From: a virus | Taxonomy: Duplodnaviria > Heunggongvirae > Uroviricota > Caudoviricetes | DNA: 64,000 nt | Reading direction: 5' to 3' (one strand) | Virus record (IMG/VR): IMGVR_UViG_2880412407_000011 | In this document: positions 21,746-23,127 of the stretch, one piece after another | How the letters are laid out: each line of letters opens with the position of its first letter | Position numbering within the stretch: the first letter of the stretch is position 1 | Notes under the pieces: model-generated | Databases searched by the model: none | Told to the model about the DNA's origin: nothing | Seen by the model: the letters and a program-made list of their open reading frames with translations, nothing else | Made by a program: the position numbers and the translations under genes

Positions 21746-22061
21746 AGTGAGACTCTATACGAAATTGGTGTTCATATCATAATGCATCTCAGAAAATAAT
21801 CATGATTATTTTTGTGCATATTTGTATGTACACATTCGAAAATAAACGAATGCGTATGCAACCCCGTAATTTTGGTGAGACCCAAAATCGATTTTGTGAA
21901 AAATGGCTTTAACTCGGTTTGTTTTTCGAGTTCCGGGCGGACTCAAGGAAGAAGAATAGTGTTGCGTGTTATTTTAACCAGATTTCAAGTTGTTTGGTCG
22001 TGGAAAAGTGGAGCAAAATGTTGTTAAAGTGGGAAAATGATAAAAAAGTAAGTTTATTATA

Positions 22062-22328
22062 TTACATTTTACCATTTAAATTTTGGTTGTCTTTAAGAAC
22101 TGATATCGCTGTTTGTAATAATTCTTTGTTATCCAGCCATGATTTTTTCTTTATGTTTCCTTCAATGTAATCAAGCAATGTTCTGGTATTGATAGGTCTT
22201 CCCTGTTTTGCTACTTCCACTACAGCATCCCCTAGGATAATTCTTACTTCAGGAAGCTGCGCAGGGAACCACTTTAGGGTGTCTTTTGATTTCATGAAGA
22301 TATTCCTTAAAATATTATTGATTTTCAT
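22062..22328 (-). CDS. hypothetical protein in AT-rich junction island
   Basis: 88-aa ORF, very low GC context; no recognisable motif. Confidence 0.3.
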   Translation of the reverse strand: MKINNILRNIFMKSKDTLKWFPAQLPEVRIILGDAVVEVAKQGRPINTRTLLDYIEGNIKKKSWLDNKELLQTAISVLKDNQNLNGKM

Positions 22329-23127
22329 TGCGATATTGTATGTCTGATTCAGGATATGTTGACTTATACATCGGTTTTGTCTGGGTTATTGGATATGCCA
22401 ATCCCTAATTTTATTAGGGCATGACTAAAAATGCTGAATATGATAAGGAGAGATGTGATTATCAGTATGCTGTTCATATAGCCTCGAATTAGTAATGTGT
22501 TATATATGATATAGTTGACAATTTTTATCTTGGGTGTTCTTAAAGTTCGTAGATAAACATTGTCGTTTCAGGTATACAGGAATGCTAACAGGTGGCAGCA
22601 AAAATCAGGCGGTTTATGGCGCAAGCTGAAGCGGCAACTGCAAACTATCTTATGCAGAGACTCTACACGGATTGGGTTTAAAAGTATACATAGATAACAG
22701 TTTTTATCTGAAAAAGAAAAATATCAAGGTGATATAGCCTATATGCCTTTGATGCGGAGGAATGAATGTGATGGGAGTGATGTATCTGAATAGTTGAAAA
22801 ACCGCAGACACGCCTTATGCAAGAACGTGCTGCGGTTGGCTGGTAAATTTTTCGATAGTGCGAGTATTGAATGATTTCCAGCCGTTATTGATTTTACGCG
22901 TAACTCCATGAAAAAACTACTTATCTGTTGGGGAGTTTTTTTTGGGGCATATATGGGACAGAAATAGGCCCCAGATAGACACTGAGATCGAACTTAGGAT
23001 GCTTTTTAAAAAATGCAACTATCTGAAAAAACCTAGAAAACGCCAAGGAAACCACAGGATGGGAAAAAACACCTGTGAATTATGGATTTCAAGAGTCATT
23101 CAATCTAACTAATTGATAAATAAAAAA

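Follow-up and report, generated by a model that had tools for sequence, protein, structure and literature searches.

An uninterrupted Qin-type attachment site as the probable seam between two tandem prophages of the ydfJ locus

The transporter gene ydfJ of Escherichia coli is a described target of lambda-like phages. The Qin prophage of strain K-12 is integrated at its 5' end (PMC6379469), and prophages at ydfJ have att sites of 18-19 bp and form prophage clusters there (PMC8112680); according to the legend of S7 Fig of the latter paper, the phage attachment site (attP) of a ydfJ prophage in the O26 strain 11368 was recovered by polymerase chain reaction. In O121:H19 strains, two prophages in tandem have been found at each of four sites, ydfJ is among the integration sites common to all strains compared, and large inversions occur between the ydfJ and ttcA prophages (PMC8767318). 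Here we analyze positions 21746-23127 of the virus record IMGVR_UViG_2880412407_000011 (Caudoviricetes), whose 64,000 nucleotides (64 kb) are referred to as the window. This AT-rich region lies between pin, a serine invertase gene at the end of a left-hand prophage (X), and int, the integrase gene of a right-hand prophage (Y). With high confidence, we consider it to be the seam of a tandem double lysogen, in which two lambda-like phages lie head to tail at ydfJ. The central elements of this arrangement, including the Qin/ydfJ att site, tandem prophages in Shiga toxin-producing E. coli (STEC), ydfK, and ynfT, are already known.

The region has a common core, both att arms, the genes ydfK, ynfT, and pin, and the target ydfJ in common with K-12 Qin and mEp460-like phages. 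In K-12 Qin, however, the two halves are separated by about 20 kb and form the attR and the attL of one decayed prophage, whereas here they are fused as P-O-P' between two prophages. The lambda tandem polylysogens and the ydfJ clusters of STEC and of EPEC, the enteropathogenic E. coli (PMC8112680; for O121:H19, PMC8767318) are similar in that phages with the same att site are arranged head to tail with an attP-type joint, and the STEC/EPEC clusters occupy the same host gene as the X/Y tandem. Nothing essential separates the present case from these clusters, although both units are disabled here (ISEc8 in the int gene of X; IS600 and an IS3-type insertion sequence (IS) in the xis gene of Y).

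Judged by sequence comparison, the region is an uninterrupted attP (P-O-P') of the Qin/mEp460 type, whose integration target is ydfJ. The ynfT-ydfK-pinQ end of K-12 Qin is 99.1% identical up to position 23093 and then continues into ydfJ, and the intQ end of the same prophage aligns from position 23076 onward with 92% DNA identity, which is also the identity between the int of Y and intQ. Because these two alignments overlap at 23076-23090, a core of 15 bp could be placed there, in a region where the initial annotation had recognized no att core. An attB rebuilt from the two K-12 host flanks lies in the 5' part of ydfJ, and codons ~27-31 of this gene are the target of the X and Y phages. Alignment to prophage-free E. 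coli, a check that had been proposed in advance, showed that 2006 of 5426 complete E. coli genomes carry this attB without interruption and with 100% identity. A probe of 411 bp with the core at its centre is present in 3113 genomes; in most of them it is split at probe positions 197-214, which correspond to the core, and in 276 it is contiguous. Neither of the flanks derived from attB/ydfJ (GGCACTGCGCT... or ...CAGTTATATTCGC) was found beside the core, and the joint contains no bacterial DNA. A second proposed check, a match to the distal prophage ends, gave the same core fused to ydfJ' at the attR of Y in strain 2002-3211.

The two arms differ in origin. Only positions 22940-23075 of the left arm are conserved with its DinI-type counterpart, the P arm found at the attR of Y in strain 2002-3211, and this part begins at about 22940 with TGGGGCATATATGGGACA. 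Viewed from the other end, the P arm of Y at attR is conserved with that of X only over the final ~150 bp before the core. The heptamer TGGGGCA occurs at 22943, 23150, and 23161 (the last two inside the 3' end of int), so that three of its nine copies in 64 kb fall within 22839-23250, and a single match to the consensus of integration host factor (IHF) is found at 23106-23118 on the minus strand, in the P' arm. From their sequence and position, the repeats would be candidate arm sites for the integrase (Int) and the IHF-consensus match a candidate IHF site.

That two phages meet at this core is indicated by the genes on both sides. The late and tail genes of X and Y are colinear and in the same orientation, and because they are only 67-78% identical (67% between 4517-5603 of X and 57997-59072 of Y, 78% between 10130-10895 and 63236-64000), X and Y should be regarded as two phages. 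In the O121:H19 strain 2014C-4423, X begins beside rspB' with a truncated int and xis that are ~98% identical to those of Y and mEp460; as this xis-int' remnant is so close to its counterpart in Y, both phages use the same type of Int. Within the window, Y continues through lysis, head, and tail genes. Strain 2002-3211 matches window positions 44000-64000 in one piece at 99.9% identity, and in this strain Y runs on via tail genes, nleC, and a DinI-like gene to the core and ydfJ' (attR). By comparison of these sequences, the layout is rspB' - X - P-O-P' - Y - attR - ydfJ. Everything to the left of the core belongs to the P-arm side of X, and Y contributes ~37 bp and int. The expectation that the right boundary of X and the left boundary of Y both lie in this region, in tandem, was thus borne out, and both boundaries are one and the same 15-bp core. 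The AT-rich DNA itself had been taken for an island between the prophages, which it is not: about 97% of it is P-arm-side cargo of X, 99% like that of K-12 Qin. The region is 100% identical in several O121:H19-type chromosomes, and part of it was found in 4301 of the 5426 complete E. coli genomes.

The window departs from strain 2014C-4423 at position 46758. An end of Y at an IS600-uspF junction was therefore dropped for the window, since this adjacency belongs to the ydfJ-ttcA inversion of 2014C-4423, in which such inversions account for the position of Y next to uspF. In that strain (NZ_CP027454.1, ~3323600-3325400), IS600 cuts Y short within its lysozyme gene and connects it to uspF-ompN, which is the flank on the Rac/ttcA side. 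There is only a very slight possibility that the joint itself arose when prophages at ydfJ and ttcA underwent general recombination or inversion. The large ydfJ-ttcA inversions of O121:H19 (PMC8767318), the connection of Y through IS600 to uspF, the Rac-side flank, in 2014C-4423, and the pin-ydfK-ynfT cassette, which is 99% identical in Rac and Qin and offers homology, all speak for such an event. However, both arms adjoining the core are of the Qin/ydfJ type, and identity to Rac ends ~240 bp before the core. The right end of K-12 Rac (pinR-ynaE-ynaM) is 98.9% identical from the 3' end of tfa to a hairpin (20996-22839), and only to that point; beyond the hairpin, Rac differs in its integrase and in its att module, which has ttcA as its target. 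Moreover, a 1382-bp joint of 100% identity accompanies either layout at the far side of Y in O121 strains, whether Y leads into uspF (2014C-4423) or stops at ydfJ (2002-3211); the uspF join of 2014C-4423 lies in the lysis region of Y, ~22 kb away; and the int remnant of X and the int of Y are of the same type.

Even less probable is the absence of any junction, in which case the region would be the internal attP/b-region of a single phage or of a prophage in vegetative order. The complete phages mEp460_ev081, Tritos, and HannyBb, of 45-46 kb, do match positions 21746-23122 (query 1-1377) in a single alignment of 98-99% identity at ~23.4-24.8 kb of their genomes, and the gene order around the region is that of the packaged mEp460 map (tail fibre, tfa, Ser recombinase, ydfK homologue, integrase, and excisionase). 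Viral records in prophage format stop inside the region, which is why an att site was suspected here. On the other side, the window contains two diverged tail-gene sets in the same orientation, related chromosomes carry two int-xis-early-lysis modules, a matching chromosome shows Y ending in ydfJ, at attR, and ordinary single lysogens split the sequence exactly at the core. The initial annotation had held that an end-to-end alignment with the interior of a single prophage would refute a junction; such an alignment exists for the three phages named above, but the argument is invalid and the tandem junction stands, because the packaged map has attP in its interior and the same site forms anew where tandem prophages meet. 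Integration of Y at an attB-like copy inside X is just as improbable, for although prophages within prophages have been documented in STEC, including clusters at ydfJ (PMC8112680), no X sequence follows Y, the far end of Y abuts genuine ydfJ, and the left arm of the joint is the normal Qin-type P arm that abuts ydfJ in K-12 Qin, which identifies the site used as X's own attR position rather than an internal pseudo-attB.

Several observations weigh against the tandem-lysogen interpretation or some of its parts. The arm-site and IHF assignments come from motif counts alone, and a generic repeat finder applied to the arm sites returned weak pairs only and nothing convincing. A promoter scan gave 8 hits, compared with 6.5 +/- 2.7 in shuffled controls. 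The outer attL of X, which lies outside the window, has been destroyed by ISEc8 in the genome examined, and an outer end of X in the same host gene is only indirectly supported. In addition, Int-mediated integration of a second phage and homologous (Campbell-type) insertion yield an identical P-O-P' joint, and the exact IS content of the window is matched by no listed genome. Finally, a sub-threshold match to the small RNA (sRNA) family CssrB, described below, lies on the strand opposite to the predicted terminator and to the G-U pattern of the stem variants.

Under the tandem-lysogen reading, the joint would have originated when a second phage, arriving at an occupied site, recombined with the resident attL or attR; alternatively, the second phage would have entered the resident prophage by homology. 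Either route would re-form a complete attachment site consisting of the P arm of X, the 15-bp core, and the P' arm and int of Y, with no host DNA between them. In the free phage, the accessory cassette of X beside attP would comprise pin, ydfK, ynfT (a 37-amino-acid membrane-type peptide), and a hairpin terminator. The order in which X and Y were integrated is an inference. It is also possible that the stretch from the cos site of X to that of Y, being in vegetative order, could be packaged directly and give a hybrid phage from two defective prophages.

Both prophages look locked in: the int of X is truncated (by ISEc8 in 2014C-4423, the genome examined) and the xis of Y is interrupted by IS elements. 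The attP is probably no longer active but a fossil left by integration. Recombination between the two IS600 copies that bracket the joint could invert the pin-ydfK-attP-int segment. The features of the region and its surroundings are listed in Table 1.

Table 1. Features at the X/Y joint and in its surroundings (window coordinates).
Feature	Position	Strand	Description	Basis or remarks
IS600 copies	19732-20961 (in X tfa); 26003-27232 (in Y xis)	inverted	two copies, 100% identical, bracketing the joint	
pin	21158..21745	minus	orphan serine DNA invertase, final gene of the late arm of X	Pfam Resolvase 4.4e-36 and HTH_7
pin-ydfK spacer	21746..22061		upstream region of pin, conserved with K-12 Qin and Rac	no family for its open reading frames
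ydfK	22062..22295	minus	77-amino-acid cold-shock-induced cargo gene	RefSeq annotation; mechanical open reading frame extends to 22328
ynfT/ynaM	22364..22477	minus	37-amino-acid hydrophobic small protein	PF23676 YnaM and NF041477
Conserved hairpin followed by U-run	22800..22838	minus	predicted intrinsic terminator of leftward transcripts in the int sense	right edge of the ydfK cassette
P arm of attP (from X)	22940..23075		candidate arm-type Int site TGGGGCA at 22943-22949	
attP core TGAATTATGGATTTC	23076..23090		15 bp, 37 bp from the int stop codon	crossover region common to the ydfJ attB
P' arm of attP (from Y)	23091..23175		overlaps the 3' end of int	unbroken sequence match to the intQ side of K-12 and to phage mEp460
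int of Y	23128..24423	minus	tyrosine integrase with arm-binding domain	Arm-DNA-bind_2 6.7e-24, Phage_integrase 5.1e-19, PHROG 1
xis of Y	24443..24691	minus	5' part removed by IS insertions	aligned to X xis and mEp460 xis
IS3-type element	24692-26003		cuts Y xis; abuts the right-hand IS600	BLAST against fetched loci; absent from strain 2014C-4423

With regard to composition and gene content, the first description of the region proved accurate in several respects. Its GC content is 0.355 as compared with 0.519 for the whole window, which confirms the very low GC previously noted (35.5% against a mean of 51.9%) and is the minimum among 1382-bp stretches sampled at a 50-bp step (rank 0.0008). The open reading frame (ORF) list and Pfam domains bear out pin and int as the flanking genes, and a tRNA scan of 20500-25000 detected none, in agreement with the earlier inspection. 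That inspection had also named the minus-strand ORF at 22062-22328 as the only one of confident length; this ORF exists, but the small ynfT/ynaM gene had been overlooked. Cargo or sRNA genes had been thought possible, and the former are present as ydfK and ynfT, whereas no sRNA reached the Rfam threshold: a scan at E <= 1 returned only the sub-threshold CssrB match and a chance match to a microRNA. Two plus-strand ORFs of at least 60 codons (21812-22027 and 21919-22170) matched no Pfam, NCBIfam, or PHROG family, and the ~320 bp between ynfT and the hairpin contain no recognisable genes. No further copy of the joint or of the att arms was detected by self-BLAST of the 64-kb window.

The hairpin at the right edge of the ydfK cassette deserves separate consideration. 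Its minus-strand RNA has a folding energy of -20.7 kcal/mol (z = -3.9), a stability that none of 200 shuffles reached, and UUUUU comes directly after it; the hairpin is located 238-290 nt beyond the core in the direction away from int, that is, on the attR side in single lysogens. A terminator scan gave a single hit at 22969-22987, which is at chance level, and did not pick up this hairpin, perhaps because its bulged stem lies outside the scan pattern. In 86 viral contigs anchored just upstream of the hairpin, the DNA behind it is of three different kinds (Qin-type, Rac-type, and one other), and the hairpin therefore marks the point of the mosaic at which the ydfK cassette meets interchangeable att/int modules; an exchange of such modules at this position is implied. 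The cassette from the 3' end of tfa through pin, ydfK, and ynfT to the hairpin is ~99% identical in K-12 Rac, K-12 Qin, and prophage X, and different lambdoid phages may carry this block as a portable cassette beside unrelated att/int modules.

Stem variants in the same 86 contigs give some indication of the strand on which the hairpin acts. Four variants still pair, as G-U, on the minus strand only, and a fifth converts a minus-strand G-U to A-U; one pairs on the plus strand only, and four disrupt both strands. As a sequence pattern, this mildly favours a role in int-sense RNA. On the plus strand, CssrB (Rfam RF02799) aligns with 22697-22834 at 25.3 bits, below its gathering cut-off of 76, and only its 3' hairpin aligns well; this resemblance suggests that the Shigella CssrB sRNA family may derive from a related prophage arm. 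A search of the literature on CssrB found nothing relevant.

Lambda provides the nearest analogy for this arrangement. In common with lambda attP/tI/sib, the locus has an arm-binding tyrosine integrase, a core just downstream of int, candidate arm repeats on both sides, and an IHF-consensus site in the P' arm, as well as a predicted int-sense hairpin terminator beyond attP that integration separates from int. Unlike in lambda, there is no sequence similarity to attP/sib, the core is so close to the int stop codon (37 bp) that P' arm sites fall within the int coding sequence, and the hairpin travels with the ydfK cassette instead of the int module. By analogy, the hairpin may be a tI/sib-like element and would end int-sense transcripts about 250 nt beyond the core, as lambda tI/sib does; if it does act in this way, it would still be cis-linked to the int of Y in the tandem state. 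It may serve as a sib-like brake on int, one that only tandem lysogens would keep linked to the int of the inner prophage.

The cassette genes are known from K-12. The pin gene, annotated as recombinase family protein, is 99% identical to the pinQ and pinR regions of K-12. A perfect 20-bp palindrome, AAAATAATCATGATTATTTT, was found by self-BLAST at 21793-21812. This AT-rich, Fur-box-like sequence lies 48-67 bp upstream of the start codon of pin, and a cluster of Fur sites has been predicted at the start of ydfK/ynaE (PMC2189734). The 37-residue YnaM/YnfT product scores 96.2 bits with PF23676 (cut-off 27; 6.5e-28) and 63.9 bits with NF041477 (cut-off 35; 1.2e-17); it does not differ in sequence from the K-12 protein, whose synthesis has been detected experimentally (PMC6001520).

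The ydfK gene had been listed as an 88-amino-acid ORF with no recognisable motif. All 16 aligned homologues begin at the inner Met, and the product probably has 77 rather than 88 residues, as in the RefSeq annotation. Profile searches in local copies of Pfam and NCBIfam, both of which are without a YdfK model, gave no match; the protein belongs to PHROG 2718 (function unknown; 1.8e-47) and is 99% identical to proteins named cold shock protein YdfK that carry the recent Pfam family PF27475, with a full-length family match. YdfK is reported to be strongly induced on a shift to cold and was pulled down with NudC at 16 C (PMC10654059). A sequence search of the PDB returned nothing significant. Its predicted four-helix fold (a model of moderate confidence with a pLDDT, i.e., predicted local distance difference test score, of 77.6, from 17 sequences) is closest to that of YmgB/AriR (PDB 2oxl), a small helical protein that regulates biofilm and acid resistance and with which it has only 14-15% sequence identity; profile searches did not place YdfK in the YmgB/AriR family, and there was no match to the Pfam YmgB model. 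According to the model, YdfK may be a phage-borne structural relative of this host regulator, switched on by cold and modulating host signalling. The readings of a portable cassette, a sib-like brake, a YdfK-AriR role, and cos-to-cos hybrid packaging are, when taken together, rather doubtful.

Two further observations concern the wider surroundings of the prophages. Past the right end of the window, in the NZ_CP101305.1 locus (12334-14065), the attR of Y in ydfJ is adjoined by nleC, which encodes a type III effector, and by a DinI-like gene. In strain 2014C-4423 (NZ_CP027454.1, 3371836-3383015), at a place not included in the window, an insert of ~10 kb interrupts X within its large terminase gene; this insert looks satellite-like and carries genes for its own tyrosine integrase, a primase, a single-stranded DNA-binding protein, and a capsid-protease fusion.

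In this analysis, the X/Y boundary has been fixed to a 15-bp core, which matters little beyond annotation. The AT-rich DNA is a known and widely shared prophage cassette, and neither a new island nor an unknown attachment system. For the recognition of such structures in general, tandem prophages cannot be excluded on the ground that a suspected junction aligns over its full length with the genome of a free phage; the informative tests are whether the core is split in single lysogens and whether two late-gene sets flank the junction. The likeness of the YdfK fold to AriR and the possible sib-like hairpin offer cheap leads on a poorly understood cold-induced prophage gene.
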